Assembly (NCBI GenBank): GCA_965262235.1
Contig: OZ253504.1
Span: 3,361,684 to 3,425,683, forward strand
Length of the DNA stretch: 64,000 nucleotides
Source of the DNA: Dehalococcoidia bacterium
Lineage (GTDB): Bacteria > Chloroflexota > Dehalococcoidia > Bin125
Direction: 5' to 3'
This document shows positions 1,950 to 45,091 of this stretch, piece by piece (within the stretch, counting starts at the first letter, position 1; each line of letters opens with the position of its first letter). A program made the translations under genes and the position numbers. The notes beneath the pieces were generated by a model. That model was not told the DNA's origin, searched no databases, and worked only from the letters and a program-made list of their open reading frames with translations.

Positions 1950-2420
1950 CCCCTCTCCCCCCGCTCTGCGGGGGGAGATGTCACGGAGTGACAGAAGGGG
2001 GCTCCCTTCCCCGCGCGGGCGCCAGCGTACCGCGCGGGGGTGGGGTGGGTGCAGGGAGCGCGGCGTGAGTGGTGGGGGGCCGTCGCTGATCTGGGGCGCT
2101 GACGGGAAGCTTGAGGTCGCATGGATTCCTGCCTGCGCAGGAATGACGGAAAGGAGGGGCAGGAACGACGGGGAGGGCAAGACCGAGGGGTGGGGTGGGT
2201 GAAGGGAACGTGGCGCGAGGGGTGGGGGGCCGTCGCTGATCTGGGGGGCTAACGGAAAGCTTGTGGTCGCATGGATTCCTGCCTGCGCAGGAATGACGGA
2301 AAGGAGGGGCAGGAATGACGGAAAGGAGGGGCAGGAATGACGGAAGAGAGGGGCGGGAACGAGGGGAGGGCAAGACCGAGGGGTGGGGCGCTGCTGGTGT
2401 GACGGAGGAGCGGCGTGTGG
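1950..2420. repeat. Cluster of palindromic repeat elements with two tandem copies of a ~170-bp unit.
   Basis: CTCTCCCCCCGCTCTGCGGGGGGAGATGTCACGGAGTGACAGA at 1953. The unit ...CGCATGGATTCCTGCCTGCGCAGGAATGACGGAAAGGAGGGGCAGGAA... repeats at ~2041-2210 and ~2211-2395. The same modules recur at 15.8-17.3 kb, 22.0-22.4 kb, 35.7 kb, 39.1 kb and 50.2-50.5 kb. Confidence 0.75.
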
Positions 2421-2432
2421 GGTGGGCTTAGG

Positions 2433-3332
2433 TCAGTCTGCGGGAGGGGCGGGGGTTTCGGGGAGGTTGGGGTCGTCGCGGAGGGCGCGGAGGATCTCGA
2501 GGTCGGCCTGGCCGGGGCCGTCGCTCTCGTAGCCGGGGACTTCGAGCAGCCAGACAGCCTTGCGCAGCAGGCGATTGCGGACCATACGGCGGAAGGCGCG
2601 CATGCCGATGTGGCCCTGGCCGATGTTTTCGTGGCGGTCGCGGCCGGAGCCGAGCTGGGTCTTGCTGTCGTTGGCGTGGACGGCCACGAGCTGGTCGTCG
2701 CTGAACTCGGCGCGGTAGGCCTGAACCACCTCACGCAGGCCGCGCTCGGTGGCGACGTCGTAGCCGGCCGCGTGCAGGTGGCAGGTGTCGAGGCAGAGGC
2801 GCACGCGGTCGTTGTGGACGCCATCGATCATCGCGGACAGCTCCGCGAACGTGGAGCCGACGCTGCGGCCCGCGCCGGCGTTGTTTTCGAGGCAGAGCCA
2901 GACATCGTCGGGCGAGTCGTCGAGCGCGGATTGCATGCCGGCCACCATCCGGGGCAGCTGGGTCTCGAAGCCTGCGCCCATGTGCGAACCGACGTGGACG
3001 ATCACGCCTTCGACGCCGAGCTGGGAGCCGAGGCGCAGCTCGGCCGTCAGCGCCGCGATGCTCTTGGCGAGCAGCTCGTCGTCGGGGCTGGCGAGGTTGA
3101 TCAGGTAGATCGCGTGGATGAAGGTGGGGCCGAGCTTGACCGCCTTCGCGTCGGCGCGGAAGCGGCGGATGTCGTCGCCGTGGTCCTTGCGTCGCCACTG
3201 CTGAGGGGCGGCGCCGAAGATCTGGATCGCCTCGGCGCCGATCTTCTCGGCGCGTTCGACGGCCTTGTAGATGCCGCCGGAGGCGGAGACGTGCGCGCCG
3301 ACGGCGGGGTTGCGGCCGCGTCGCCTAGGCAC
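2433..3332 (-). CDS. nfo: Endonuclease IV (deoxyribonuclease IV, AP endonuclease).
   Basis: GAHVSASGG...HxxYLINLAS...HLHAAGYD signature of the Nfo/xylose-isomerase-like TIM barrel, 299 aa. Confidence 0.85.
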   Translation of the reverse strand: MPRRRGRNPAVGAHVSASGGIYKAVERAEKIGAEAIQIFGAAPQQWRRKDHGDDIRRFRADAKAVKLGPTFIHAIYLINLASPDDELLAKSIAALTAELRLGSQLGVEGVIVHVGSHMGAGFETQLPRMVAGMQSALDDSPDDVWLCLENNAGAGRSVGSTFAELSAMIDGVHNDRVRLCLDTCHLHAAGYDVATERGLREVVQAYRAEFSDDQLVAVHANDSKTQLGSGRDRHENIGQGHIGMRAFRRMVRNRLLRKAVWLLEVPGYESDGPGQADLEILRALRDDPNLPETPAPPAD

Positions 3333-3627
3333 CGGCGAGCCTGCTCAGTTTGGTGAGCCAGCGGCGGCCGCGGGGCAGGAAGACGGTCGATTGGACGGCG
3401 GCGACCCAATCGGCATCGCTGCCGGCGGTCAGCCGGACGCGGGCTTCGCCGGTTTCGAGCGAGCAGTCGGCGGACTCGACGCCGGGGAGCTCGGCCAGGG
3501 CCGACTGGACACGGCCCGCGCAGATGCCGCAGACGAGGCCGTCCACGGCGAGGTGGACTTCGGAATCGGAGGCGCTGAGGATGCGCGCCTCGGGGGTGAT
3601 CAGCAGGTTCTTCGGTCGCAGTTTCAC
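3325..3627 (-). CDS. Heavy-metal-associated (HMA) domain protein, a copper-chaperone-like protein.
   Basis: LAVDGLVCGICAGRVQSALAELPGV matches the HMA MxCxxC metal-binding loop (here C-G-I-C) within a ferredoxin-like fold. The exact start is uncertain. It overlaps the nfo start by 8 bp. Confidence 0.45.
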   Translation of the reverse strand: MKLRPKNLLITPEARILSASDSEVHLAVDGLVCGICAGRVQSALAELPGVESADCSLETGEARVRLTAGSDADWVAAVQSTVFLPRGRRWLTKLSRLAGA

Positions 3628-3652: not shown

Positions 3653-5113
3653 TCATGCGCCGGTCGGCTGCGCCGGCCAGCCGAGCCAGTCGAGGTAGCG
3701 GCGGACCGCGGTCGCGCAGGATTCGATCGACTGGTAGCAGGCGACGCCGGCCTCGTTGAGGGAGCGCTGGAGCTTGATGCCTTTCTCGAAGCCCTCGACG
3801 CTGTTGGGCTCGCGGATCACCACGGCGATCGGGCGGCTGAGCTTGGGGGCGAGCTTGCCGATCCGGTCCGCGAACTGCTCTTCGAAGCCGTCGCGGTCGC
3901 GCCGGCTGTTTCCGCGGAAAGCCATATCCATCCCCGTGTGGACCATCATCCAGTCGATCGATTCGTCTTCGGCGACGGCGGTCAGCGCGGCCTCGACGCC
4001 TTCGCCCTCGAACATGAAGCCGGCGTCGAGCGGGTTGCGCACCGAGGTGCCGGCGATCGGAGTGAATTTGCTGAGCCGCTGCTGGGTGGTCTTGCTGAAC
4101 CAGGGGACGGGGATGCCGGCGCGGTCGCAGATGTCGGCGGCGAGCACCGAAACGCCGCCGCCGCCGCCGAGCACCGCAGCGCGCGGGCCCGCGAGGTGGG
4201 GCATTCGCTGGACGGTGACCGCGAGGTCGAGCAGCTCGTCGACGCTCTCGGCGCGCATGAAGCCGGCCTGACGCTGGACGGCGTTCCAGATCTGGGCGGA
4301 GCCGGCGAGCGAGCCGGTGTGTGAGCTGGCGGCTCGCGAGCCGGCCTCGGTCAGGCCGCCCTTGAGCACTGCGAGTGGTCGCTTGCCGGCCATCGAGCGG
4401 GCGACGCGCAGGAAGCGAGGGCCGTCGCGGATGCCCTCGATGTAGGCGAGCACGATGTCGGTGTCGGGATCGTTGGCGAGGAACTGGAGATAGTCGGCCT
4501 CGTTGAGGTCGGAGGCGTTGCCGAACGAGGCGACGTTGGAGAACTCAATCCCGCGGCGCGGGCCGTGGCCGAGCGCCTCGCTGGCGTTCATCCCGCTCTG
4601 CGAGAGCATGGCGACGCGGCCGGGGGTGGGGGAGGCGGAGTCGCTGAAGGAGACGCCGCCGCGGGTCGAGTGGATGCCCAGGCAGTTGGGGCCGATCAGG
4701 CGGATGCCGCCAGCGTCGAGGCGCTTGAGCACCTCGCGCTCGAGCTCGGTGCGTTGCTCGTCGCCGGTTTCAGAGAAGCCGGCCGTGAAGAGGTGGATGA
4801 CGCGCACGCCCTTGGCTACGCAGTCATCCACGAGGCTCAGGATCGCCGAGGCGGGCACGGAGGAGATGACGTAGTCAACCTCGCCCGGCGCCTCAACCAG
4901 CGAGCGGTAGATCGGCGTGCCGTCCTGCAGCTTGCCGCCCTTCGGGTTGATGCAGTAGACGTGTTCGAGCCGGTCGAGGTTGCGGATGCCGCGCAGGAAG
5001 GACTGTCCGCCGCCCCAGCCGACGTTGGAGGCTGAGACGCCGGCGATAGCCACCGAGCGCGGCGCGAAGGCGACGCCGAGGGCGTCCTGTCCGTCGCGTT
5101 CACGGGCGGTCAT
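3653..5113 (-). CDS. CoA-binding-domain protein of the NDP-forming acyl-CoA synthetase type (acetyl-CoA synthetase, ADP-forming alpha-domain family).
   Basis: MTARERDGQDALGVAFAPRSVAIAGVSAS...GPNCLGI...SQSG... has the CoA-binding and succinyl-CoA-synthetase-like flavodoxin domains. The start is taken at the ATG giving MTAR (5113); the ORF extends further upstream without homology. Confidence 0.7.
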   Translation of the reverse strand: MTARERDGQDALGVAFAPRSVAIAGVSASNVGWGGGQSFLRGIRNLDRLEHVYCINPKGGKLQDGTPIYRSLVEAPGEVDYVISSVPASAILSLVDDCVAKGVRVIHLFTAGFSETGDEQRTELEREVLKRLDAGGIRLIGPNCLGIHSTRGGVSFSDSASPTPGRVAMLSQSGMNASEALGHGPRRGIEFSNVASFGNASDLNEADYLQFLANDPDTDIVLAYIEGIRDGPRFLRVARSMAGKRPLAVLKGGLTEAGSRAASSHTGSLAGSAQIWNAVQRQAGFMRAESVDELLDLAVTVQRMPHLAGPRAAVLGGGGGVSVLAADICDRAGIPVPWFSKTTQQRLSKFTPIAGTSVRNPLDAGFMFEGEGVEAALTAVAEDESIDWMMVHTGMDMAFRGNSRRDRDGFEEQFADRIGKLAPKLSRPIAVVIREPNSVEGFEKGIKLQRSLNEAGVACYQSIESCATAVRRYLDWLGWPAQPTGA

Positions 5114-5214
5114 CCGGTCTGTCGTGTTGCCCGGCAGGTCGGTCAAGAGCGCGCAGCCTTCCCCGGCGCGAGCCGCGCTCGCGCAGCGCCAGCGTAGCAA
5201 GCGTCGTGCTGAAG

Positions 5215-6606
5215 TCAGAGGGGTGGAGGCCGCCAGCCGCCGAGCGCGGACTCGAGCAGGGCGGCGAGGGCGAGGCAGATGTCCTCGCGCCACGGTGCGG
5301 CGACGATCTGTAGGCCGATCGGGAGTCCCTCGTCCGACGTGCCGCAGCGCACCACGACGGCCGGCCAGCCGGCGATGTTGTAGGGGCTGGTGAACGACCC
5401 GCTGCGGCTGGCTGGCTCGGGATATGCGCCTGGCGCCGTCGCTGGCGCGGCGTTGACCGGGGCGATGATCGCGTCGTAGTCGGCGATGAACTTCAACATG
5501 TCGGCGCGGAAGCGGTCCTGGGCTTCGAGGGCGGCCGTAAAGTCGGCGACCGGAACGGGGCTGGGGTCGGCGAACTCGCGGGCGATCTGGTGCGACGGGT
5601 GTTCCGTGCCGACGCGCTCGAGCAGACGCTGCATCCAGACGCCACCATCGCCGCGGTCGACGCGTTTCCAGAGATCGACGCTACGTGCGAGCGGCTCGGG
5701 CGTACGTTGCTCGATTGAAGCGACCAGGTCTCGGAGCGCGGCCACGGCCGCGCTGATGGCGCGGCGGGTAGCGTCGCTCGGCGTGGCGTGAAGTTCGATG
5801 TCGCAGTACCAGGCGAGGCGTAGTCGCCGGACGTCGACCGCGGCGGGATCGCCGAGCGGCACCGGGTGAATATCGGGATCGATGCCGTCTGGACCACTGA
5901 TGATTGGGAGGGTGAGCGCGAGGTCTTCGACGTGGCGAGCGATTGGGCCCAGCACGGTCCAGCCGCCGATCGCACCGAGTCCCCAGGAGACGATGTGGCC
6001 GCTGCGCGGCACGCGGCCGGCGGTCGGCTTGAGACCGGCAACGCCGCAGAAGTGCGCCGGGCCGCGGATGCTGCCGCCTGTATCGCTGCCGATGTCCAGT
6101 GGCGAGCCGCAGGCGGCGACGATCGCGGCCGAGCCGCCGCTGGAGCTGCCCGGGCTGCGCGTGAGGTCATACGGATTGTGCGTGGGACCGAACAGGTCGT
6201 TGTCGATCTGCGCAGCCAGCGTGCACTCGGGCGTGTTGGTCTTGCCGATCACGATCGCGCCGGCGTCGCGCAGCCGGGCGACGACGGTCGAATCGCGCGA
6301 GGGCACGTGATCGCGGCGACCGACAGTGCCGCCGGTCGTGCGGAGTCCCGCGGTGTCATGCGAGTCTTTGAGTGTGATCGGCACGCCGTGCAGTGCGCCG
6401 AGCGTCGCGCCGCGCGCTACGGCTCGGTCGGCGGCCGCAGCCTCTGCGAACGCGCGGTCGTCGCATCGGGTAACGACGGCGTTGAGCTCGCCGTTGACCT
6501 GATCGATGCGCTCGAGATGCGCCTGGACCAGCTCGACTGCTGAGACCTCTCGCGCGCGGACGAGCTGCGCCATTGCCGCGGCGGACGAGTGCAGCAGCTC
6601 ACCCAT
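5215..6606 (-). CDS. Amidase (amidase-signature family), paralog 1.
   Basis: GKTNTPECTLAAQ...GGSSGGSAAIVAA...GSDTGGSIRGPA is the AS-family Ser-cisSer-Lys signature, 463 aa. Confidence 0.85.
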   Translation of the reverse strand: MGELLHSSAAAMAQLVRAREVSAVELVQAHLERIDQVNGELNAVVTRCDDRAFAEAAAADRAVARGATLGALHGVPITLKDSHDTAGLRTTGGTVGRRDHVPSRDSTVVARLRDAGAIVIGKTNTPECTLAAQIDNDLFGPTHNPYDLTRSPGSSSGGSAAIVAACGSPLDIGSDTGGSIRGPAHFCGVAGLKPTAGRVPRSGHIVSWGLGAIGGWTVLGPIARHVEDLALTLPIISGPDGIDPDIHPVPLGDPAAVDVRRLRLAWYCDIELHATPSDATRRAISAAVAALRDLVASIEQRTPEPLARSVDLWKRVDRGDGGVWMQRLLERVGTEHPSHQIAREFADPSPVPVADFTAALEAQDRFRADMLKFIADYDAIIAPVNAAPATAPGAYPEPASRSGSFTSPYNIAGWPAVVVRCGTSDEGLPIGLQIVAAPWREDICLALAALLESALGGWRPPPL

Positions 6607-6609
6607 GGA

Positions 6610-8001
6610 TCACAGCGGGGGGCGCTGCCAGCCGCCGAGGGCGGATTCGAGGGCGGCGGCGAGGGCGAGGCAGATGTCCTCGCGCCACGGCTTGGCGAGG
6701 ATCTGGACGCCGATTGGCAGGCCCTCGGCCGAGGTTCCGCAGCGCACCACCGCGCCGGGCCAGCCGGTGATGTTGTACGGGCCGGTGTAGAACATGGTGC
6801 GATTGTCGCCCTCGTAGGTCGCGCCGTGGGTGGGCGCGGGCTGCGAGGCGACGGGCGCGACGACGGCGTCGTAGTCCTGGACCCAGCCGAGCATCTCGCT
6901 GCGGAACTGGTCCTGGGCTTCGAGCGCCGCGGTGTACTCGGCGGTGGTAGTGGGCTCGGTTCGCGCGAAGCCCTTCTCGATGAAGGGGGAGACCTCGGTG
7001 GTGCCCCACTTCTCCAGCATGCGGTCGACCCAGGCGCGGCCGTCGCCCCCGCCGACGCGGGCCCAGAGGTCGACGTACTTGCTGATTGGGGGCGGCGCGT
7101 CCTGCTCAACCGACTGCACGAGCTCGGCGAGGGCGGTGACGGCCGCGGAGAGCGTGGCCTGGGTGTCGTCGGTGGCGCGCTGGTAGCCGTCGACGTCGGA
7201 GTAGTAGGCGATGCGCAGACCGCTGATGTCGACATCGGCGGGGTCGCCGAGCGGCACCGGGAAGATTGCAGGGTCGACACCGTCGGGGCCGGAGATGATC
7301 GGCAGGGCGAGGACGAGGTCCTCGACGTAGCGGGCCATCGGACCGATCGTGGTCCAGGCGTCGAGCGCGCCCATGCCCCAGGGGACGATGTGCCCGGTGC
7401 GGGGGACACGGCCGGCGGTCGGCTTGATGCCGGCGATGCCGCTGAAGTGGGAGGGCAGGCGGATGCTGCCGCCGGTGTCGCTGCCCATGTCGAGCGGGGA
7501 GCCGCCGGCGCAGATGATCGCGCCCGCGCCGCCGCTCGAGCCGCCGGGGGTGCGGGTGAGGTCGAACGGGTTGCGCGTCTGGCCGTAGACGAGGTTGTCG
7601 GTCTCGCCGGAGAGGGTCAGCTCGGGGGTGTTGGTCTTGCCCATCAGGATCGCGCCGGCGCCGCGCAGGCGGGCTGTCACGGTCGAGTCGGCCTCGGGCA
7701 CGAAATCTTTGCGGCCGAGCGTGCCGCCGGTGCTGATGACGCCGGCGGTGTCGTGCGAGTCCTTGAGCGTGATCGGGACGCCGTGGAGCGGGCCGAGCTC
7801 GTCGCCGCGGGCGATCGCGGCGTCGGCGGCTGCGGCCTCTTCGCGGGCGCGCTCGGCGCAGAGTTGGACGACTGCATTGAGGTCGCCGTTGACCTCGTCA
7901 ATGCGGGCCAGATGGGCTTCGAGCACCTCGGAGGAGGAGACCTCCCCGGCGCGGATCGCATCCGCGATGGTGACAAGCGAGGAATAGGTGAGGTCGTCCA
8001 T
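6610..8001 (-). CDS. Amidase (amidase-signature family), paralog 2.
   Basis: Same AS signature (GKTNTPELTLSGE...GGSSGGAGAIICAG...GSDTGGSIRLPS). It is 463 aa, in tandem and in the same frame as paralog 1, separated by 3 nt. Confidence 0.85.
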   Translation of the reverse strand: MDDLTYSSLVTIADAIRAGEVSSSEVLEAHLARIDEVNGDLNAVVQLCAERAREEAAAADAAIARGDELGPLHGVPITLKDSHDTAGVISTGGTLGRKDFVPEADSTVTARLRGAGAILMGKTNTPELTLSGETDNLVYGQTRNPFDLTRTPGGSSGGAGAIICAGGSPLDMGSDTGGSIRLPSHFSGIAGIKPTAGRVPRTGHIVPWGMGALDAWTTIGPMARYVEDLVLALPIISGPDGVDPAIFPVPLGDPADVDISGLRIAYYSDVDGYQRATDDTQATLSAAVTALAELVQSVEQDAPPPISKYVDLWARVGGGDGRAWVDRMLEKWGTTEVSPFIEKGFARTEPTTTAEYTAALEAQDQFRSEMLGWVQDYDAVVAPVASQPAPTHGATYEGDNRTMFYTGPYNITGWPGAVVRCGTSAEGLPIGVQILAKPWREDICLALAAALESALGGWQRPPL

Positions 8002-8072
8002 GTGTGGAGCTCCGTTTGCGGATTGATGCGTACTGGCAAGCTAACGCGGCGGATAGGCTGCGCGTCGCGATC

Positions 8073-8708
8073 ATGTCCCTCAAGATCATCGTTCCCTCGC
8101 GCGCCGGCCCGATTGACGCCATGTGGTGCCAGCCCGAGGGGGTCGCGCGCGGGTCGGTGTTGTGCGTTGGCGGCTTCGACGGCGGGTTTGAGGGGCCGGC
8201 GAACGGGATCTTCGCGGCCTTGGCCGACTTCCTGCCGGACATCGGGATTGGCGTGCTGCGGCTGGACTTCCGGATCAAAACGTCGCCGGGGCCGATTGAT
8301 TCGGGGACGGATGATGTGTTGGCTGGTCTGGAGTGGCTCGCGGAGCAGGAGGCTGCGCCTGTCGCGCTGATTGGGCACTCATATGGGGGCGCGATCGTGA
8401 TCCGCGCGGGAGCGCGGTCGGAGCACGCCGGGTCGGTGGCGGCGCTGTCGACGCAGACGGCCGGGATTGAGCTGGAGGATCTCCAGCGTCTGCCGCCGCG
8501 ACCGTTGCTGCTGGTGCATGGGGCCGCGGATTGGCGTCTGCCGCCGCGGTTGTCGGAGTGGGTCTACTCGCAGGCGCTGGAGCCGAAGGCGCTGCAGATC
8601 CTGCCGGAAGCGACGCACTCGCTGCGCCAGCGGCGCGACGAGCTGTGGGAGATTCTGACCGAGTGGGTGGAGGCGTCGCTGACCACGCATGACAGGCTGC
8701 AGGAATGA
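8073..8708 (+). CDS. Alpha/beta hydrolase (dienelactone-hydrolase-like).
   Basis: GHSYGG nucleophile elbow and a C-terminal His region. The start is taken at MSLKII; the ORF extends to 8004. Confidence 0.6.
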   Translation: MSLKIIVPSRAGPIDAMWCQPEGVARGSVLCVGGFDGGFEGPANGIFAALADFLPDIGIGVLRLDFRIKTSPGPIDSGTDDVLAGLEWLAEQEAAPVALIGHSYGGAIVIRAGARSEHAGSVAALSTQTAGIELEDLQRLPPRPLLLVHGAADWRLPPRLSEWVYSQALEPKALQILPEATHSLRQRRDELWEILTEWVEASLTTHDRLQE

Positions 8709-8721
8709 CGAGGCAGGCCTG

Positions 8722-9507
8722 CTAACGGCCCTGGAACTTGGCTTCGCGCTTCTCGGCGAAGGCGGTCGTGCCTTCGCGGGAGTCGGCGGTCTCCATGATT
8801 TCGGAGTAGAGACGGCTCTCGACGGCCATGCCCTCGGCGAAGCCGCTGGGATTGAGTACGCCCTCGTAGGCGGCGCGCTTGGCGGCGCGGACAGCGAGCG
8901 GTGCGTTGGAGGCGATCTCCTCGGCCATCGCACGGGCCGCGGGCAGGAGCTCTTCAGGCGTGGTGACGGCGTTGGCGAGGCCGATGCGATGAGCTTCGTG
9001 GGCGTCGATGTGGTTGGCGCGCATGAGGATTTCGAGCGCGACTCCGAAGGGGACGTAGCGGGCGAGTCGCTGGACCTGACCGCCGCCGGGCAGCAGGCCG
9101 CGTTTGGGCGCCATGCTGCCGATTCGCGCACCCTCGGCCATGATCCTGATGTCGCAGGCGAGGGCGAGCGCGAAGCCGCCGGCGAGGCACCAGCCGTTGA
9201 TCGCGGCGATCACCGGTTTCGCTGTCGCACCGGGTCCCCAACTGCCGAGGCCTGCCGCGTCTGCGGCGCTGCGTTTGGCGCGGTCGCGCTCGTCGTCGTG
9301 GGCGGCGTCGCGGACCAGGTCGCGGCCGGAGCAGAAGGCGCGACCGGCGCCGGTGATGATCGCGACGTGGAGATCGTCATCGCCTTCGAACTCGCGCCAG
9401 AAGGCCTCGAGTTCGCGGCCCATTTCGGGTGAGATGGCGTTCATCCGCTCGGGGCGGTCGAGGGTGACGGTGGCGATCTTGCCGGAGTGGTCGATCAGCA
9501 GTGGCAT
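8722..9507 (-). CDS. Enoyl-CoA hydratase/isomerase (crotonase family).
   Basis: ATVTLDRPERMNAIS...AIITGAGRAFCSGRDL...GGG crotonase fold motifs, 261 aa. Confidence 0.85.
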   Translation of the reverse strand: MPLLIDHSGKIATVTLDRPERMNAISPEMGRELEAFWREFEGDDDLHVAIITGAGRAFCSGRDLVRDAAHDDERDRAKRSAADAAGLGSWGPGATAKPVIAAINGWCLAGGFALALACDIRIMAEGARIGSMAPKRGLLPGGGQVQRLARYVPFGVALEILMRANHIDAHEAHRIGLANAVTTPEELLPAARAMAEEIASNAPLAVRAAKRAAYEGVLNPSGFAEGMAVESRLYSEIMETADSREGTTAFAEKREAKFQGR

Positions 9508-9702
9508 GGTGCGATCATACGCGGACGACGCGGGAGGGTCACCCGGGCGGGGCAGGCAGCGTTCCTCGGCTGGGGAGTCGTCGCGTCCTACGCCGAGTTG
9601 GAACTCGTGACGAAGGGCGCCCGACGGCTGTCGGGCGCCCTCCTGCAGGCGAGGCCTCAGGCGCCGCGCCAGCGTTCGCGGGGCGGCTACCGCGGGCGCC
9701 CG

Positions 9703-10968
9703 CTACTCGTCGTTCGCCGCGCTATCGGACGGAGGGTTGAAGCGCCGCGCGTTCGCGCTCAGGATGCTGATCCGGTCGATTGCCTCTTGCGGCGTCGAGA
9801 GGATCGGCGCCTCGAGCGTGATTTGCAGCTGGGGCTGGAAGCCCGCCGGGTCAACGCCGTAATCGGCGAGCAGGTTTCGATAGGCGGCGACCGCGGCGCG
9901 CAGGGCGCTGAGGACCAGCCAACTCTGGTGGTAGGGATTGGTGTTGACGGTGAACAGCAACTTGCCGTCGCGCAGCGCCTCGAGAGCGGCGATGTTGATA
10001 TCGAACGTGGCGAGCACGGCGCTCGACGCTTCTGTATCGATCGCGGCGAGTGCGGCGAGACTGATCCGTGCGTTGAGGGTGATCACGCCGGCAACGGGAG
10101 TCTGGCCTGAGTCAGCGCGCAGCCGTCCCGCGATGGACGCCTGCGTTGCCGCCAGGTCGCTGACGCCGGTCTCGTTGACGGTGAACCGTTCAAGCTGGCC
10201 TGGGTAGCCGCTCTCGAAGCCGTTGCAGCGCTCCTCGAGGCCGATGTTCTCTTCTTCGTGGATGACGCAGAGCACGGTGCCGGTGATGCCGGCGTCGACG
10301 AACCGCTGTGCGGCCCGGCTGCCAAGCCGGTGCTCGTCGACGCTGACGTGGAACAGCGAGCCGACGCGCCTGAAGTCATCGCGGCCCGAGTTGAAGGACG
10401 CCACGACGACGCCGGCCTCCCTGGCTTCGGCGAGCGCGTCGGCGAGTGCGTCGGGCGCGGCGAGGGTGGTGGCGATGGCGCCGGCGCCGGCGGCGACGCA
10501 GTCGCGCACGAGCTGAGCCTGCCCGCTGGGCACGGGGTTGGCCACCACGCGGACGTCAATGCCGAGGCCGTCAACGCTCCAGCGCCTCGACGATGCGGCC
10601 CTGCGGACGGTGTTCCAGAACGCTTCGTCGCCGGGGTGTTCGTGGGTGACGAGGCACCAGAGCTCGTCTTCGGACTCGGCGACGGTCTCGGTGGCTGCCT
10701 GGTCGCTCTCGGTGGGAGCCAACGCGACGGCGCTGCTGCTGTGCCAGCGGCCCGGGGCGGCATCGGCAGGGAGGAAGCGGCTGTCGGGCAGGCTGCGTTC
10801 GCCCCATTCGCCGCCGGCGCTCTGTTGAATCGCGACTTCGACGCGACCGTCGTCGAGGCGTCGGGCCTGGACGCGCAGCTCGTCGTCGCCGCCGGCGGCC
10901 ATTGCCAGGCCCAGCGTGATCGCGGCCACGACGAATCCGGCCACGAACGTCATGGTGGTCTTGAGCAT
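9703..10968 (-). CDS. Membrane-anchored periplasmic-binding-protein-like (type I PBP / sugar-binding-like) substrate-binding protein.
   Basis: N-terminal TM helix followed by two alpha/beta lobes resembling the LacI/RbsB-type PBP fold. There is no adjacent transporter gene. Confidence 0.45.
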   Translation of the reverse strand: MLKTTMTFVAGFVVAAITLGLAMAAGGDDELRVQARRLDDGRVEVAIQQSAGGEWGERSLPDSRFLPADAAPGRWHSSSAVALAPTESDQAATETVAESEDELWCLVTHEHPGDEAFWNTVRRAASSRRWSVDGLGIDVRVVANPVPSGQAQLVRDCVAAGAGAIATTLAAPDALADALAEAREAGVVVASFNSGRDDFRRVGSLFHVSVDEHRLGSRAAQRFVDAGITGTVLCVIHEEENIGLEERCNGFESGYPGQLERFTVNETGVSDLAATQASIAGRLRADSGQTPVAGVITLNARISLAALAAIDTEASSAVLATFDINIAALEALRDGKLLFTVNTNPYHQSWLVLSALRAAVAAYRNLLADYGVDPAGFQPQLQITLEAPILSTPQEAIDRISILSANARRFNPPSDSAANDE

Positions 10969-39291: not shown

Positions 39292-39825
39292 ATGGCGACG
39301 ACATCACGAGCCAAGGCGAAGCGCAATGCGCGGGCCGCGCGGCGCGCGGAACAGACCGACCCCGAGCGGGCGAACAACCGCGTGCTCGCGCGCAACCGCC
39401 GCGCGACCTGGCAATACGAGATCACGCAGCGGATCGAGGCCGGGATCGAGCTGCGCGGCAGCGAGATCAAATCGCTGCGCATGGGCCGCGGCTCGATCGC
39501 TGAGGCCTACTGCCGCCCGCGCGGCGGACAGCTGTGGCTGATCGGCGCGCACATCGCGCGCTACGAGCCGGCCGGCGAGCAGAACCACGAGCTGACCCGC
39601 GACCGTCGGCTGCTGGTCCATCGCCGTGAAATCCACCAGCTGGAGGCGGCGTTCGAGCAGCGCCGGCTGACCCTGGTGCCGCTGCGCCTGTACCTGAAGC
39701 ACGGCCTCGTCAAGCTGGAGATCGGCGTGGCCCGCGGCAAGCGCGAGCACGAGAAGCGCCAGCGCATTCGCGAGCGCGAGACCAACCGCGAAATCGCCCG
39801 CGTCCTCCGCCAAAACAACGTCTGA
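39292..39825 (+). CDS. smpB: SsrA-binding protein SmpB.
   Basis: ...NRVLARNRRATWQYEITQRIEAGIELRGSEIKSLR...LLVHRREI...LKHGLVKLEIGVARGKREHEKR is canonical SmpB with a basic N-terminal extension. Confidence 0.85.
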   Translation: MATTSRAKAKRNARAARRAEQTDPERANNRVLARNRRATWQYEITQRIEAGIELRGSEIKSLRMGRGSIAEAYCRPRGGQLWLIGAHIARYEPAGEQNHELTRDRRLLVHRREIHQLEAAFEQRRLTLVPLRLYLKHGLVKLEIGVARGKREHEKRQRIRERETNREIARVLRQNNV

Positions 39826-39837
39826 GCCGCGCTGGCG

Positions 39838-40030
39838 GCCCGCAGTCCGCGCATGCCGACACGGGCCGCGTCAAGCGTCGCACGGTCGTCGATCCCGCGA
39901 CGCCCGAGGACGTGGATGCGATGCGGAATCTGATCGAGGGCACCGACATATTCTCGCAGGCGTGCAGCGCGGAGAGTCTCGCGCGCCACGGGGCAGACAC
40001 GCTAGAGTTCACAGAACTTCCCTCAGGAGC
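39838..40030 (+). pseudogene. Fragment of a family III CoA-transferase paralog (internal ~60 codons only).
   Basis: PQSAHADTGRVKRRTVVDPATPEDVDAMRNLIEGTDIFSQACSAESLARHG is clearly homologous to QSAQADTGHGKRRAFVDLETPEGVDAMWHLIEGADVFSQSYRAESLARRG of the intact gene at 43126-44562. No start codon and no flanking domains. Confidence 0.5.
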
Positions 40031-40036
40031 GGCCTC

Positions 40037-41194
40037 ATGGCGAGTCCAGCCACACATGCCACACGTGGCGAAGAACCATCGTTCACCCCCGAGTTCCTGC
40101 CCGTTGGGGAGCTTCACCTTGACGGTAAGAATCCGCGCATCCAGCAGGTCGGAGTGGACCTCGACCAGGAGCGCATTCTCAAGATCCTTTGGGAGGAGTA
40201 CTCCGTAGACGAAGTGGCGCTGTCCATTGCGCAAAACGGCTTCTTCCCTCACGAGCCCTTGTTCGCCATCGAGGAGGGTGGCAGGCTCGTGGTCGTAGAG
40301 GGCAATCGCAGGCTCGCGGCTGTCCGATTACTCCGTGAGCCCGACCTCCGGGAACGCCTTCGTGGAGAAGCGTTGCCCACGATATCCGTAGAAGCGATCG
40401 CCAAGCTCGACTTCGTTCCTGTCATCCGCTGCAAGCGCGAAGGGATTTGGCAATACATCGGCTTCAAGCACGTGAACGGACCACAGGCATGGACATCCCT
40501 TGCCAAAGCCGAGTACGTCGCTTGGGTGAAGAACGAAATCGGCACTTCTCTTGAGGACATCGCCCGCACCATCGGTGACTACCACTCGACAGTCACGCGG
40601 CTATACCGAGCATACATGGCCCTGAAGCAGGCAGAAGATGAGGGCGTCTACGATCGCAAGTGGCGGACTCGGAAACACTTCTCATTCTCACACCTCTACA
40701 CCGGCCTGGACTACCAAGGCATACGGGATTTCACCCGTATCGCCGATCTCGACCCGCCCAAGGCGAGGCCGATCCCCAAGAGCAGACTCAAGGAGTTTGG
40801 TGAGCTGTGCGTCTGGCTGTGGGGGGACACGACACATAACACAGTTCCTCTAATCAAGAGCCAGAATCCCGACCTCCGCGATCTTGATGGAGCCCTCCAG
40901 AAGAAGGCCGGGCTAAGTGCTCTCCGCGCTGGCTATGGCATCTCTGTCGCGGTCGATATCGCCCGTGGCGACACCGCACTCTTCCGGGAGGCGTTGCTCA
41001 AGTCAAAGCAGTCGCTCCAGAATGCCCGCGCGAAGGTAGCAACTGGATTTGAGGGCGAAAAGGATTTGTCAAGGGAGATGGAAGAAATCCTCGTCATCGC
41101 CGATGCCCTTGACGACGACATGCGGACGATCGCGATAGACCCCCTACAGAGGCAGCGAGATAGGCGACGACGCCGGAGAGCCCAGAGGACATAG
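40037..41194 (+). CDS. ParB/Srx-fold (ParB-like nuclease domain, DUF262-like) protein.
   Basis: N-terminal ...LHLDGKNPRIQ...GRLVVVEGNRRLAAVRLL matches the ParB N-terminal domain motif. SD-like AGGAGC sits 7 nt upstream of the ATG. This is the first gene of a low-GC three-gene block. Confidence 0.55.
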   Translation: MASPATHATRGEEPSFTPEFLPVGELHLDGKNPRIQQVGVDLDQERILKILWEEYSVDEVALSIAQNGFFPHEPLFAIEEGGRLVVVEGNRRLAAVRLLREPDLRERLRGEALPTISVEAIAKLDFVPVIRCKREGIWQYIGFKHVNGPQAWTSLAKAEYVAWVKNEIGTSLEDIARTIGDYHSTVTRLYRAYMALKQAEDEGVYDRKWRTRKHFSFSHLYTGLDYQGIRDFTRIADLDPPKARPIPKSRLKEFGELCVWLWGDTTHNTVPLIKSQNPDLRDLDGALQKKAGLSALRAGYGISVAVDIARGDTALFREALLKSKQSLQNARAKVATGFEGEKDLSREMEEILVIADALDDDMRTIAIDPLQRQRDRRRRRRAQRT

Positions 41195-41200
41195 CGGCGG

Positions 41201-42181
41201 ATGGTAGGTCTCATCGTTCCGCCGGCGTCCGCCGACGCAACGGAACACGCTGACTGGCTTGAGTTGACGGCGGCGGTCACATCTGACGCCACTCGTTCAA
41301 GGCAGCATCTAATCGCAGCGATCCGAAGAACGGGCTCAATCGATGGGACTCCCTCCACCGAGGACCTAGACGATGAACCGCTTGATGAGCTGGTTGAGCG
41401 GGAGGATGAAGAGCTTGAGGGAATCGCCGACGCCGCCTTCGAACAACTGGCGAGGCGCGAGAGCTACCTCGGCGCGCACTACCCGTTTGCCGTTGGCGGG
41501 ACGGTGCAAGCCAAGGATGGTGCTCTGGCCTCGCCCTATCTCTTCCTGACGGCGCTGACGAAGTTCAACCCGACGCTGAGGGCATCGGAAGAGAGCGGCG
41601 CCTCGCTCTTTGAACGCGTTAGCAGGACTGCTCTGGTGGAATACCTCGGCGGCGTAGAAACCGTGCGCTCCTACGACTTTGGGTTTCCCCGACGCGACGG
41701 CCCGAAGGCGTTCTACGATGCTCTTGAGGCTCTGTGCCAGCAAATGGGTGAGGGGCTTGGCTGCAAGGTGAAAAGGCCCAAGACAGCCAGCGTCAAGGAC
41801 GCGAAGCTTGACCTCGTGGCATGGCTACCGTTCGAGGATGGCCGTGACAATCAACTTAGCGTATTCGGACAGTGTGCAGCGGGGATGGACTGGTCTGAGA
41901 AGGTCAATGAGCTTCAGCCAGTTGACTTTTGCCGCATATGGTTGAAGGAATCCCCGGCGATGAGTCCCCTTCTCGCTTTCTTCGTGCCCCGGCAGGTTGA
42001 GGAACGCCGCTGGTTTCAGGTTAGCGTTGGGGAGCGACGCATTTTCTTCGACCGGCTCAGGATCGCCCGCTTTCTCGGCAGGCTCGACAAGGACCTCGCC
42101 AAGCGCTGCGAGTCGTGGACGGCGGCAGCTATCGCAGTGGGTGACGCGGCCGGCGCCCCCGTTGCTGACGCGACATCCTAG
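41201..42181 (+). CDS. Hypothetical protein, middle gene of the island.
   Basis: 326 aa, tightly coupled between the ParB-like and Dam genes. The N-terminus is acidic. I recognise no motif with confidence. Confidence 0.4.
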   Translation: MVGLIVPPASADATEHADWLELTAAVTSDATRSRQHLIAAIRRTGSIDGTPSTEDLDDEPLDELVEREDEELEGIADAAFEQLARRESYLGAHYPFAVGGTVQAKDGALASPYLFLTALTKFNPTLRASEESGASLFERVSRTALVEYLGGVETVRSYDFGFPRRDGPKAFYDALEALCQQMGEGLGCKVKRPKTASVKDAKLDLVAWLPFEDGRDNQLSVFGQCAAGMDWSEKVNELQPVDFCRIWLKESPAMSPLLAFFVPRQVEERRWFQVSVGERRIFFDRLRIARFLGRLDKDLAKRCESWTAAAIAVGDAAGAPVADATS

Positions 42182-42183
42182 GC

Positions 42184-43038
42184 ATGAGGTTCGCGAGCCC
42201 GCTTCGCTACCCAGGCGGGAAGGCAGCCATGACGGGCATCCTGCGCACCATCAGGACCTTAAACGGCTTCAACGGTCATGCTGTGGCCGAACCGTTCGCG
42301 GGTGGGGCTGGTGCCGCGCTTACGCTTCTCTATTCTCGGGAGACGCATAAGGTACACATAAACGATCTCGATCCCGCCATCCACGCCTTTTGGTTCTCGG
42401 CGGTTCACGACAGCGAGGCGTTGCTTAATCTCCTCGATCAGACGCCGGTGTCCGTCGAGGAGTGGAAGCGTTGGAGGGATGTCTACCGAAGTGGCCGCGC
42501 CTCGCCTCTTGAACTGGGGTTTGCCACTTTCTACCTCAACCGCTGCAATCGGTCAGGAATCATTCAGAACGGCGGCGTCATAGGTGGGATCGAGCAGAGG
42601 GGGCGTTGGAAAATCGATGCCCGGTTCAACAAGCTTGCCTTGAGGCAGCGGCTTGAACGAATCGCGGAGGAGTGCGACCGAATAGCGGTGTCGAACCTTG
42701 ATGGCATCGACTTCATCGACACGTTAGATGCGGAATCGACGCTCTACTTTGTGGACCCGCCCTACTTCAGAAAAGGGCCCCTGTTGTATCTGAATAGTCT
42801 TAGTGATGACTATCACTCCAGTCTCGCTGAGAAGCTCCAGAGCATTGAGGAAGCGGCATGGGTTCTGACCTACGACGACTGTTCTGAGATCCGCGAGCTG
42901 TATGGAGAGTGGGCGGCGATTCATCCTTTCTCGCTTCGCTACTCGGCACGTGAGCGGCAGCAGGGACGGGAGGTCTTGATCACGCCTCGGTGGATGCACT
43001 TGCCAGAGGCCGTGAGTGAGGCTGCGGTGAGCTGGTGA
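42184..43038 (+). CDS. DNA adenine methyltransferase (Dam/D12-class N6-adenine MTase).
   Basis: N-terminal LRYPGGK (AdoMet motif I), Glu/Asp motif II, and catalytic DPPY (FVDPPYF) motif IV in Dam order. Its ATG immediately follows the upstream stop. Confidence 0.8.
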   Translation: MRFASPLRYPGGKAAMTGILRTIRTLNGFNGHAVAEPFAGGAGAALTLLYSRETHKVHINDLDPAIHAFWFSAVHDSEALLNLLDQTPVSVEEWKRWRDVYRSGRASPLELGFATFYLNRCNRSGIIQNGGVIGGIEQRGRWKIDARFNKLALRQRLERIAEECDRIAVSNLDGIDFIDTLDAESTLYFVDPPYFRKGPLLYLNSLSDDYHSSLAEKLQSIEEAAWVLTYDDCSEIRELYGEWAAIHPFSLRYSARERQQGREVLITPRWMHLPEAVSEAAVSW

Positions 43039-43125
43039 GCCGCGCTGGCGGCGCGCTCGCGGAGTTCCAGTGGCTGGGCGACCAGGCCGAAGCCCGGCAT
43101 CGGGCATGACTTATCTTCGGCTGAT

Positions 43126-44562
43126 GTGACGGTTCGGGACACGTTTGGACCCCTCATGCAGCGCGCCGACCTTGAAGCGATTTCGGAAGCCGCCGGGGTG
43201 CCGGCGACGACCACCCCGATCGAGTTCACGGGGCCCGACGATCCGACCTACCCCTCGCCGCTGCGGCTGGGCGAGGGGACGGCGGCGCTGCTCGCGAACG
43301 TCGCCGGCGCAGTCAGCGACATCACAGCCGCGACCGGCGGAACGCCGCAGTCGGCGCAGATCGATGTCGGCCATGCGCTCGTCTCGATCTCCAGCATGTG
43401 GGTGCTGCGGGTCAACGGCGTGCTCGCGGGCGAGGCGCTGGCCGACGAGATGGCCCCCGGCCAGGGCATCTTCCCGACCCGCGACGGCCGGCATCTCTAT
43501 CTGCTCAGCGGCTTCGCGCACATCGTTGAGCGGACGCTCGAGGCGATCGGCTGCCATGACGTGACGCGCCTCGCCGAGCACGTCGCGGAGCGCGACTCCG
43601 CCGAGCTTGAGGCGGCGCTGGTCGAGGCGCAGCTGACCGGCGTCGTGCTGCGCGACGCGGAGCAGTGGTCAGCCCACCCACAGGGGCGGCTGCTCGCGCA
43701 GTCGCCGGCGGTGCGGGTCGAGCGGATCGGCGACGCCCCGCCCACGCCGCTGCCGGAGGGCGCGCAACCGCTCGCAGGACTGCGCGTGCTCGATTCGACG
43801 CGCGTGCTGGCCGGGCCGACGATCTCGCGCACGCTCGCCGGTCTCGGCGCCGATGTCCTGCACGTCGGCTCGCCGCACGTGCCCGACCTGCAGTCCGCGC
43901 AGGCCGACACGGGCCACGGCAAGCGTCGCGCGTTCGTCGATCTGGAGACGCCCGAGGGCGTGGACGCGATGTGGCACCTGATCGAGGGCGCCGACGTGTT
44001 CTCGCAGTCGTACCGCGCGGAGAGTCTGGCGCGGCGCGGGCTGGGCCTCGAGGCGGTGGCGGCGCGGCGGCCGGGCATCATCTATGTCTCCGAGAACGCC
44101 TACGGCCAATCGGGGCCGTGGCGCGAGAAGCGCGGCTTCGACGGCAACGTGCAGGCCGCCAGCGGGATCGCAGCGCTGCACCAGCGGTCCGACCAGTTCG
44201 CGCCGGCGGGCCCGGCGATGGCGATGAACGACTACTGCACGGGCTACTGGGGCGCGTACGGCGTGCTGGAAGCGCTCAAGCGCCGCGCGACCGAGGGCGG
44301 CTCGTGGCACGTGACGGTCTCGCTCGGCCAGACCGCGGCCTGGTTCCTGCGGATGGGCACGCCGCACGAGATCGGCGCGGATCATCCCGCGCGCGATCCG
44401 GAGATCGGCTATCGGCTGGCCGCGCAGTTCTCGGAGGATGTCGAGTCGGACTACGGGACGCTGACGCGTCTGAAGTTCCCGATCAGCTTTTCCGACACCG
44501 AGCCCGCCTGGTCGCGCACCGTCAAGCCCGGCGCCCACGCCCCGGAGTGGCTGCCGCGCTAA
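43126..44562 (+). CDS. CoA-transferase family III (CaiB/BaiF-like) domain protein with a ~200-aa N-terminal extension.
   Basis: LAGLRVLDSTRVLAGPTISRTLAGLGADVLHV..ESLARRGLG...GFD are family III CoA-transferase motifs starting near residue 205. Confidence 0.7.
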   Translation: MTVRDTFGPLMQRADLEAISEAAGVPATTTPIEFTGPDDPTYPSPLRLGEGTAALLANVAGAVSDITAATGGTPQSAQIDVGHALVSISSMWVLRVNGVLAGEALADEMAPGQGIFPTRDGRHLYLLSGFAHIVERTLEAIGCHDVTRLAEHVAERDSAELEAALVEAQLTGVVLRDAEQWSAHPQGRLLAQSPAVRVERIGDAPPTPLPEGAQPLAGLRVLDSTRVLAGPTISRTLAGLGADVLHVGSPHVPDLQSAQADTGHGKRRAFVDLETPEGVDAMWHLIEGADVFSQSYRAESLARRGLGLEAVAARRPGIIYVSENAYGQSGPWREKRGFDGNVQAASGIAALHQRSDQFAPAGPAMAMNDYCTGYWGAYGVLEALKRRATEGGSWHVTVSLGQTAAWFLRMGTPHEIGADHPARDPEIGYRLAAQFSEDVESDYGTLTRLKFPISFSDTEPAWSRTVKPGAHAPEWLPR

Positions 44563-44732: not shown

Positions 44733-45091
44733 GGGGACGAAAGGGATCGACAGCGGCCGACTGATCTGTGGCTGCGCGCCGAGGTGGCGTTCCTCGCTAA
44801 TCCGCGCCAACCTTTCCTTAACTGGCGAAACCAAGGAATTCGCACTCGCCGCTTAACCGCGGCGACGTCGCCTCCCGACTGCCGCCGAACCGGTGGGAGT
44901 GCGGCGCCATCAGTTTGGCCGCTCGCCGCGGGATGACGGGACCGCAGCGCTAAGACCATTCCGGATCACCTGGTCGTAACGGCTGGCCGACGCGCCGGCG
45001 ACCGGGGAAAACTTAAGCGACGGCTACGCGCGTAGAGGCTGCGGGGAGCGACCGACTGGACGGGGAGTTCGATTCTCCCCCGTCTCCACCA
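44733..45091 (+). ncRNA. ssrA: tmRNA (ssrA).
   Basis: 5' GGGGACGAAAGGGATCGACAGCGG... The 3' tRNA-like end is GGACGGGGAGTTCGATTCTCCCCCGTCTCCACCA, giving T-arm GGGAG/CTCCC and acceptor 5'-GGGGACG pairing 3'-CGTCTCC, then ACCA. The internal tag ORF ends ...GETKEFALAA-TAA (44854-44856), the canonical ...ALAA degradation tag. Confidence 0.7.

Follow-up and report, generated by a model that had tools for sequence, protein, structure and literature searches.

A horizontally acquired three-gene island beside smpB in a Dehalococcoidia bacterium as a probable restriction-modification-type defence module related to PD-lambda-5

Downstream of smpB, on the way to the tmRNA (transfer-messenger RNA) gene ssrA, the chromosome of a Dehalococcoidia bacterium (GenBank assembly GCA_965262235.1, contig OZ253504.1) carries a compact block of three genes with a markedly low GC content, which raises the question of how the block came to be there and what its proteins do together. 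In the following, the window is the whole 64 kb stretch that was analyzed (contig positions 3,361,684 to 3,425,683), and the island is the block formed by ORF1, ORF2, and ORF3 at window positions 40037-43038. On the evidence of protein profiles and predicted structures, we regard the island as a probable self-contained defence module of the restriction-modification (R-M) type, consisting of three co-translated genes and representing a three-gene variant related to PD-lambda-5. The three open reading frames (ORFs) are tightly packed on the plus strand: ORF1 (40037-41194) encodes 385 amino acids (aa), ORF2 (41201-42181) 326 aa, and ORF3 (42184-43038) 284 aa. The intergenic gaps are 6 and 2 nt, and AGGAG is located 7 nt 5′ of the ORF1 ATG. 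An earlier interpretation made from the letters of the window (the sequence-only reading) had given the same coordinates and needs correction only in the first gap, which it counted as 7 nt. The drop in GC that it described is real; with 0.595 the island is the lowest 3-kb segment in all 64 kb, while the mean outside the island is 0.699 (standard deviation 0.030, minimum 0.653). The GC content at third codon positions is 0.70 in the three island genes compared to 0.90-0.92 in the smpB, PhyH-like, CoA-transferase, and SBP genes, and this contrast with the neighbours indicates a foreign origin rather than local noise.

For the protein encoded by ORF2, no match was found in Pfam, NCBIfam, PADLOC, or the sequences of the PDB, no functional name is attached to any of more than 190 homologues, and sequence searches revealed no resemblance to known restriction enzymes. 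In a structure search, the predicted model (pLDDT 87.9) matched PD-(D/E)xK restriction enzymes. The best matches were MspJI, FokI, N.BspD6I, the small subunit of R.BspD6I, and PaqCI, all enzymes whose cleavage domain relies on a separate recognition domain or subunit; AspBHI was also among the best. The architecture comprises an N-terminal winged-helix-like domain, which matches winged-helix proteins by structure, an acidic linker, and a C-terminal domain with the PD-(D/E)xK nuclease fold. Across 43 homologues, D200, D204, D213, G223, and C225 are invariant, and K199, Q224, and K234 are near-invariant. Judged from its model, ORF2 is a previously unrecognized protein of the PD-(D/E)xK restriction-endonuclease fold, and it is likely to be catalytically active. 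A profile search against 1.84 billion representatives retrieved 2,998 ORF2 relatives at E ≤ 1e-3 and 2,347 at E ≤ 1e-10, corresponding to a family of ~3,000 clusters at 50% identity for which there is no Pfam, NCBIfam, or PADLOC model. If our interpretation of the island is right, this is a large restriction-type nuclease family left unlabelled by both domain and defence databases.

ORF1 has no Pfam match and falls below the thresholds of Pfam ParBc and TIGR00180. Searching with its predicted model in Foldseek, the top 22 matches were all ParB/Noc/KorB structures with a CTPase fold and a helix-turn-helix (HTH) domain (E-values down to 2.9e-6, probability 1.0). In a profile of 42 homologues, the invariant GNRRLAA, with GNRR at residue 89, aligned with the Box II GERRLRA of Helicobacter pylori ParB; the arginine pair of Box II is invariant among the homologues, and a Box I-like motif is conserved. 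ORF1 thereby presents in succession the ParB/Srx fold, the Box II pattern GxxRxxA, and the HTH by which the ParB-CTPase family is defined, and the model assigns it a ParB/KorB/Noc-type CTPase fold followed by an HTH DNA-binding domain. The ligand bound by a ParB-family protein is not predictable from sequence (10.1101/2025.10.10.680097). The C-terminal half of ~200 residues is helical, with a long coiled coil and an Arg-rich tail at its end, and is strongly conserved with many invariant residues; neither the structure search nor the homologue profile gave a structural match or a HEPN domain for it. The predicted two-domain architecture (CTPase fold and HTH) and the Box I-like and Box II (G-x-R-R) motifs are shared with the ParB/KorB/Noc clamps. 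ORF1 differs from these in that its Box II reads GNRRLAA instead of GERRxRA, in the extra conserved 200-aa C-terminal half, and in its obligate nuclease partner, and the island has neither parA nor a parS context. A partition function for ORF1 was considered and rejected, as parA is lacking and ORF1 is found next to a methylase and with a nuclease as its constant partner.

The Arg-rich tail of ORF1, QRQRDRRRRRRAQRT (41120-41191), has a counterpart of opposite charge in the acidic linker of ORF2, GSIDGTPSTEDLDDEPLDELVEREDEELEG (residues 45-80, 41333-41440). Both charge features recur in homologues, and they could mediate an electrostatic contact, mimic DNA in an auto-inhibitory manner, or bind DNA non-specifically.

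ORF3 was matched by Pfam MethyltransfD12 (PF02086, 1.7e-10), by PADLOC PD-Lambda-5_B (PDLC04018, 6e-97; residues 2-278 of 284 on profile positions 3-280 of 291), by PADLOC MTase_II (7e-76), and by the adenine methylase in PDB entry 7m6b (5.8e-15). With YPGGK at residue 9, FAGGAG at 38, and DPPY at 191, the motifs are intact, and both motifs and profiles identify the methyltransferase with S-adenosylmethionine motif and (D/S)PPY that is characteristic of Type II R-M systems. By these profile matches, ORF3 is assigned as a D12-class (Dam-like) N6-adenine DNA methyltransferase of the PD-Lambda-5_B family. The sequence-only reading had assigned a ParB/Srx fold to ORF1 and a D12-class adenine methylase to ORF3, and both assignments hold, as do the motifs it quoted (GNRR in ORF1; YPGGK and DPPY in ORF3). 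It was wrong in finding no restriction endonuclease in the block, given the PD-(D/E)xK fold of the ORF2 model, and its statement that the trio matches no arrangement it could name is not supported, since PADLOC PD-Lambda-5 models match ORF3 and the N-terminal part of ORF1.

The three proteins are linked far beyond this lineage. A locus scan using one genome per species returned 80 loci in other genomes, and these span Chloroflexota, Actinomycetota, Acidobacteriota, Planctomycetota, Binatia, Proteobacteria, Bacteroidota, and other groups. In 77 of the 80 loci, the ORF2-like gene is immediately preceded by an ORF1-like gene, most commonly with a 4-nt overlap at the junction, and the remaining three loci are cut by contig ends. 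Next to the pair, 74 of the 80 loci have a DNA methylase of one of two classes. In 44 loci, an amino-methylase of ~365 aa with the motifs DPFCGRGT and SPPY directly follows the pair, and in 30 the methylase is of the D12 class (on the same strand, downstream in 17 and upstream in 8, and on the opposite strand in 6). Among the D12-methylase loci, the identity of all three proteins to those of the window declines together. Six loci have neither methylase class, two of which end at a contig edge, and besides the methylase no widely conserved neighbour was observed in the 80 loci. The adjacency of ORF1 and ORF2 is obligate, and the linkage to a methylase is near-obligate with the class of methylase being interchangeable; the genes are thus co-conserved in other genomes, a point on which the sequence-only reading had made its proposal depend.

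Distant homologues of the pair are also carried by phages. In the P2-like Yersinia phage HQ103 (L082, MZ420230.2) the pair is located beside gpA, and a C5 cytosine methylase is encoded on the other strand; in a Vibrio campbellii prophage the pair and a D12 methylase are located between int and cI, and the pair is also present in a human-gut phage scaffold. A constant pair, swappable methylases of three chemistries, and accessory-gene positions in phages together make up an R-M signature. The C5 cytosine methylase of HQ103 is a 314-aa ORF (2335-3279, minus strand; PF00145, 5.5e-65) without annotation in the GenBank record, where the ORF1-like and ORF2-like genes are labelled hypothetical.

The closest described system is PD-lambda-5, a prophage-borne system found in Escherichia coli ECOR7, with the components listed as "ParB/HEPN, methyltransferase" (Vassallo et al. 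2022, Nat Microbiol, PMC9519451). Of the 10 phages tested, only one was left unaffected, cloning of the system required an mrr-deleted host, and the authors described it as a compacted RM+Abi system, that is, restriction-modification with abortive infection (PMC9519451). The island shares with PD-lambda-5 the methylase family, ORF3 corresponding to PD-Lambda-5_B over its full length, and the organization as a compact mobile module that is often carried by prophages. The ParB-like N-terminal domain of the partner protein is likewise homologous to that of ORF1. Residues 21-177 of ORF1 were matched by 23 PADLOC PD-Lambda-5_A models (best 1.7e-20, profile positions 14-173 of 473), and hhalign aligned residues 15-161 with a true PD-Lambda-5_A protein at 94% probability. 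The two systems differ in that the C-terminal half of the A protein is a HEPN-type effector, which ORF1 does not have, and in that PD-lambda-5 has two genes where the island has three, the ORF2-like nuclease gene accompanying the ORF1-like gene in 77 of the 80 loci. The trio is therefore not PD-lambda-5 as defined. As the known partner of this methylase family is a ParB/HEPN defence protein, the alternative that ORF3 is a solitary phage Dam next to an unrelated partition ParB, which the sequence-only reading had left standing, can be set aside.

Mixed loci connect the two systems. L006 and L040 each have a true full-length PD-Lambda-5_A gene next to the ORF1/ORF2 module, and in Vibrio phage ValB1MD-2 (L089) an ORF3-family methylase follows a canonical PD-Lambda-5_A. 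Considering that ORF3 falls within the PD-Lambda-5_B family while ORF1 shares only the ParB-like domain, these loci lead us to view the trio and PD-lambda-5, on sequence evidence, as sibling modules that share a methylase family and a ParB-like domain and differ in their effector, a fused HEPN domain in PD-lambda-5 and a DNA nuclease encoded by its own gene in the trio. In L040, a metagenome-assembled genome of the Acidobacteriota, the genes at 3986-8885 are in order PD-Lambda-5_A (495 aa), a PD-Lambda-5_B methylase, ORF1-like, and ORF2-like. The methylase, 60% identical to ORF3, is the only one between the A gene and the pair, so that a single methylase apparently serves both the ParB/HEPN protein and the ParB/nuclease pair, and the locus may represent the uncompacted "RM+Abi" arrangement alluded to by Vassallo et al. 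In ValB1MD-2, PD-Lambda-5_A (1952-3504) is annotated as two overlapping coding sequences of 252 and 265 aa, which cover profile positions 4-238 and 250-502 of 503. Either the ParB half and the effector half are genuinely encoded by separate genes here, or a frameshift accounts for the two annotations.

From these data, the island would work as follows. ORF3 would methylate adenines at target sites in the host chromosome. ORF1 would contact DNA with its HTH and recognize unmethylated sites on DNA entering the cell, with a nucleotide bound in the ParB fold possibly acting as the gate, and would then recruit or license ORF2, a FokI/MspJI-like PD-(D/E)xK cleavage protein, to cut the foreign DNA. 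In comparison to PD-lambda-5, another type of C-terminal domain, together with a DNA nuclease encoded by its own gene, would take the place of the fused HEPN effector. We infer this division of labour between ORF1 and ORF2 because the nearest structural relatives of ORF2 are cleavage modules in need of a separate recognition part, because ORF1 and ORF2 are inseparable across loci, and because ParB-like domain and effector are directly joined in a single protein in PD-lambda-5. Nucleotide dependence, protection by methylation, cleavage, a recognition site, and anti-phage activity are likewise what the proposal would predict for the trio. A role in defence or modification, as suggested by the sequence-only reading, remains the best interpretation of the block.

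Four observations weigh against this proposal. The lysine of the (D/E)xK motif is absent from its canonical position in ORF2, where the strand reads G-Q224-C225-A/T. Two complete loci, L005 and L020, have the pair without an adjacent methylase. The combination of one reader/nuclease family with three methylase chemistries would require repeated re-matching of specificity, which by analogy is usual for R-M systems, and the fold assignments of ORF1 and ORF2 derive from AlphaFold models and not from solved structures.

If the module is of the R-M type, it would differ from the Type II and Type IIS systems with modular or heterodimeric nucleases, such as FokI, the large and small subunits of R.BspD6I, and PaqCI, in that the proposed recognition partner is a protein with the ParB-CTPase fold and an HTH. 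To our knowledge, this fold combination does not occur in any characterized restriction enzyme. Since ORF1 has the ParB nucleotide-binding fold and the arginine pair of Box II, cleavage may also require a nucleotide, unlike in Type II R-M systems. ParB-like domains are found in the Type IV enzymes GmrSD, BrxU, and SspE, which have in common with the island a nucleotide-binding domain of the ParB/Srx fold coupled to a DNA nuclease in defence (PMC12839542). These are single fused proteins with an HNH nuclease that attack modified DNA and have no cognate methylase, whereas the island encodes two separate proteins, its nuclease is of the PD-(D/E)xK type, and a methylase is an obligate neighbour. 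The searchable literature yielded no description of the ORF1/ORF2/methylase trio; a paper on Asgard mobile elements and a survey of BREX systems deal with other ParB-like proteins only and do not describe the trio.

A more specific and quite speculative version, which we advance as an outside possibility, is that the trio represents a new R-M mechanism. A ParB-type clamp gated by CTP or ATP would load at unmethylated sites, slide or spread along the DNA, and deliver or activate the FokI-like cleavage subunit. Such a system would be the first restriction system to use a ParB-CTPase switch instead of a helicase or translocase for communication between recognition site and cleavage, with PD-lambda-5 as its RNase-armed sibling.

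The R-M-type module with ORF1 as reader has to be weighed against a conventional Type II R-M system, in which ORF2 alone would be sequence-specific through its own winged helix and ORF1 would be a KorB-like controller, an analogue of the C proteins, timing expression of the nuclease after transfer. We consider this arrangement unlikely. The 385 aa of ORF1 are conserved throughout, including the C-terminal half with its many invariant residues, which is far beyond the needs of a repressor, and its ParB domain is homologous to a domain that is fused to the effector in PD-Lambda-5_A. The pair is moreover never separated in 77 loci, while the position and orientation of the methylase vary, and the structural matches nearest to ORF2 are non-specific cleavage modules.

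It is still harder to reconcile the data with ORF1 and ORF2 being a methylation-independent or modification-dependent nuclease, similar to Type IV or Abi systems, with the methylase serving, e.g., to shield DNA from other restriction systems or to label it for a partner such as PD-Lambda-5_A, and we judge this explanation highly improbable. The modification-dependent enzymes MspJI and AspBHI are indeed among the best structural matches of ORF2, ParB-like domains are present in GmrSD, BrxU, and SspE (PMC12839542), the pair stands without an adjacent methylase in two loci, and the methylase of L040 also adjoins a full-length PD-Lambda-5_A. Against this, the methylase is adjacent in 74 of 80 loci and changes class while the pair stays, which is the pattern expected if methylation protects the host from the nuclease. 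Next to an active methylase, a nuclease directed at methylated DNA would kill the cell unless the two enzymes differed in specificity, and ORF2 has a winged helix as its N-terminal domain and no SRA-like reader of modified bases. That the island is a degenerating or non-defensive remnant without current nuclease activity, either a selfish addiction module or an epigenetic regulator with leftover genes, would fit the non-conserved position of the catalytic lysine, the lack of mobility genes, and the retention of the island since before the divergence of the window strain and its relative L081, but is scarcely credible with three ORFs intact in both strains at 89-95% amino-acid identity, ORF2 the best conserved of them (97% nucleotide identity), invariant residues of ORF1 and ORF2 held across phyla, and the methylase motifs unbroken.

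Should the R-M interpretation hold, the island exemplifies a new R-M architecture, in which the nuclease is always paired with a ParB-fold protein and protected by interchangeable methylases. It would also open a way into the mechanism of PD-lambda-5, and the ParB-CTPase switch, familiar from chromosome segregation and gene silencing, would gain a role in immunity. Automated pipelines would probably label the locus as "PD-Lambda-5" or as an orphan Dam methylase, and the nuclease would be missed either way.

How the island arrived can be read from its borders. The upstream neighbour smpB (Pfam SmpB, 1.2e-51) is located at 39292-39825, and a 17-nt direct repeat, TGAGCCGCGCTGGCGGC, was found by repeat search on the plus strand at 39823-39839 (left copy) and 43036-43052 (right copy). 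The TGA of the left copy is the stop codon of smpB, that of the right copy is the stop codon of ORF3, and the two copies are 3,213 bp apart, which is the size of the insert. Empty and occupied sites were identified by homology searches with SmpB followed by reading of the contigs of the relatives. L084, with a 95% identical SmpB, encodes none of the three island proteins, and by alignment a single copy of the repeat stands at its smpB stop codon, followed directly by the sequence that flanks the island on the right in the window and by the CoA-transferase gene. L086 and L087 (SmpB 80% identical) are also empty, with the CoA-transferase gene directly after smpB. In L081, a contig of 6.98 Mb, the island occupies the identical site, the island genes being 92-97% and the flanks 96-98% identical to the window at the nucleotide level, and the acquisition consequently predates the split between the window strain and L081. 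The three-gene block is a precise, horizontally acquired insertion, and with an occupied site, an empty site, and the 17-nt duplication all at hand, the window provides a clean natural example of the mobility of the module.

These data agree with the sequence-only reading in that the block was acquired horizontally and contains no integrase; no other mobility gene was found inside the insert either. Its suggestion of a classic integration neighbourhood at the tmRNA gene is not supported. The gene ssrA (44733-45091; ARAGORN, Rfam 126.8 bits) is 1.7 kb away, beyond the gene for a family III CoA-transferase (43156-44562), which that reading did not mention, and the island thus adjoins smpB and the CoA-transferase gene and not the tmRNA gene. 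Integration at ssrA was rejected, as the junction maps to the smpB stop codon, and the features of a tmRNA- or tRNA-targeting island, an integrase and an attachment site at the 3′ end of ssrA or of a tRNA gene, were not found.

The left end of the insert carries, just 5′ of ORF1, a 157-nt fragment (39836-39992, plus strand) with 85% identity to 43884-44040, which lies inside the resident CoA-transferase gene. L081 has the fragment as well. Its identity to the CoA-transferase genes of relatives is 74-85%, with 74-76% for the orthologues in L085-L087, and it could be donor flank or promoter material. A promoter scan across the island gave no promoter-like sites, and a terminator scan gave two terminator-like sites, which is no excess over shuffled sequence.

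The same junction is occupied differently in L085 (SmpB 85% identical), where a gene for a 797-aa DnaJ/TPR protein (7613-10006) is found between smpB and the CoA-transferase gene in place of the island. The smpB/CoA-transferase junction is accordingly variable in this lineage and is apparently a local insertion hotspot. The automatic ORF of the CoA-transferase gene in the window starts with GTG at 43126, and alignment with L084, L086, and L081 indicates ATG at 43156 as the true start (MQRADLEA...).

Two further features concern the surroundings of the module in other genomes. A protein of ~960 aa combining a PLD nuclease and an SF2 helicase (PLDc_2, ResIII, and Helicase_C) is encoded within 5 kb of the module in nine of the 80 loci, e.g., L074 (2-2890), which suggests a defence-island context in these nine genomes. 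In L068 (5267-7974), the ORF1-like gene is split, with residues 19-300 encoded at 5267-6109 and residues 299-383 at 7744-7974. The ~1.6 kb between the two halves hold an ORF of 525 aa without a Pfam match, and no recognizable methylase is present at the locus; the split is possibly due to a mobile-element insertion that inactivated the system.

In the tmRNA gene of the window, ARAGORN called a tag of 25 aa, AATSPPDCRRTGGSAAPSVWPLAAG, starting at 44859. Just 5′ of this, at 44824-44856, the frame GGC GAA ACC AAG GAA TTC GCA CTC GCC GCT TAA encodes GETKEFALAA*. Because of its canonical ALAA ending, this is probably the real tmRNA tag, the ARAGORN call starting one ORF too late.

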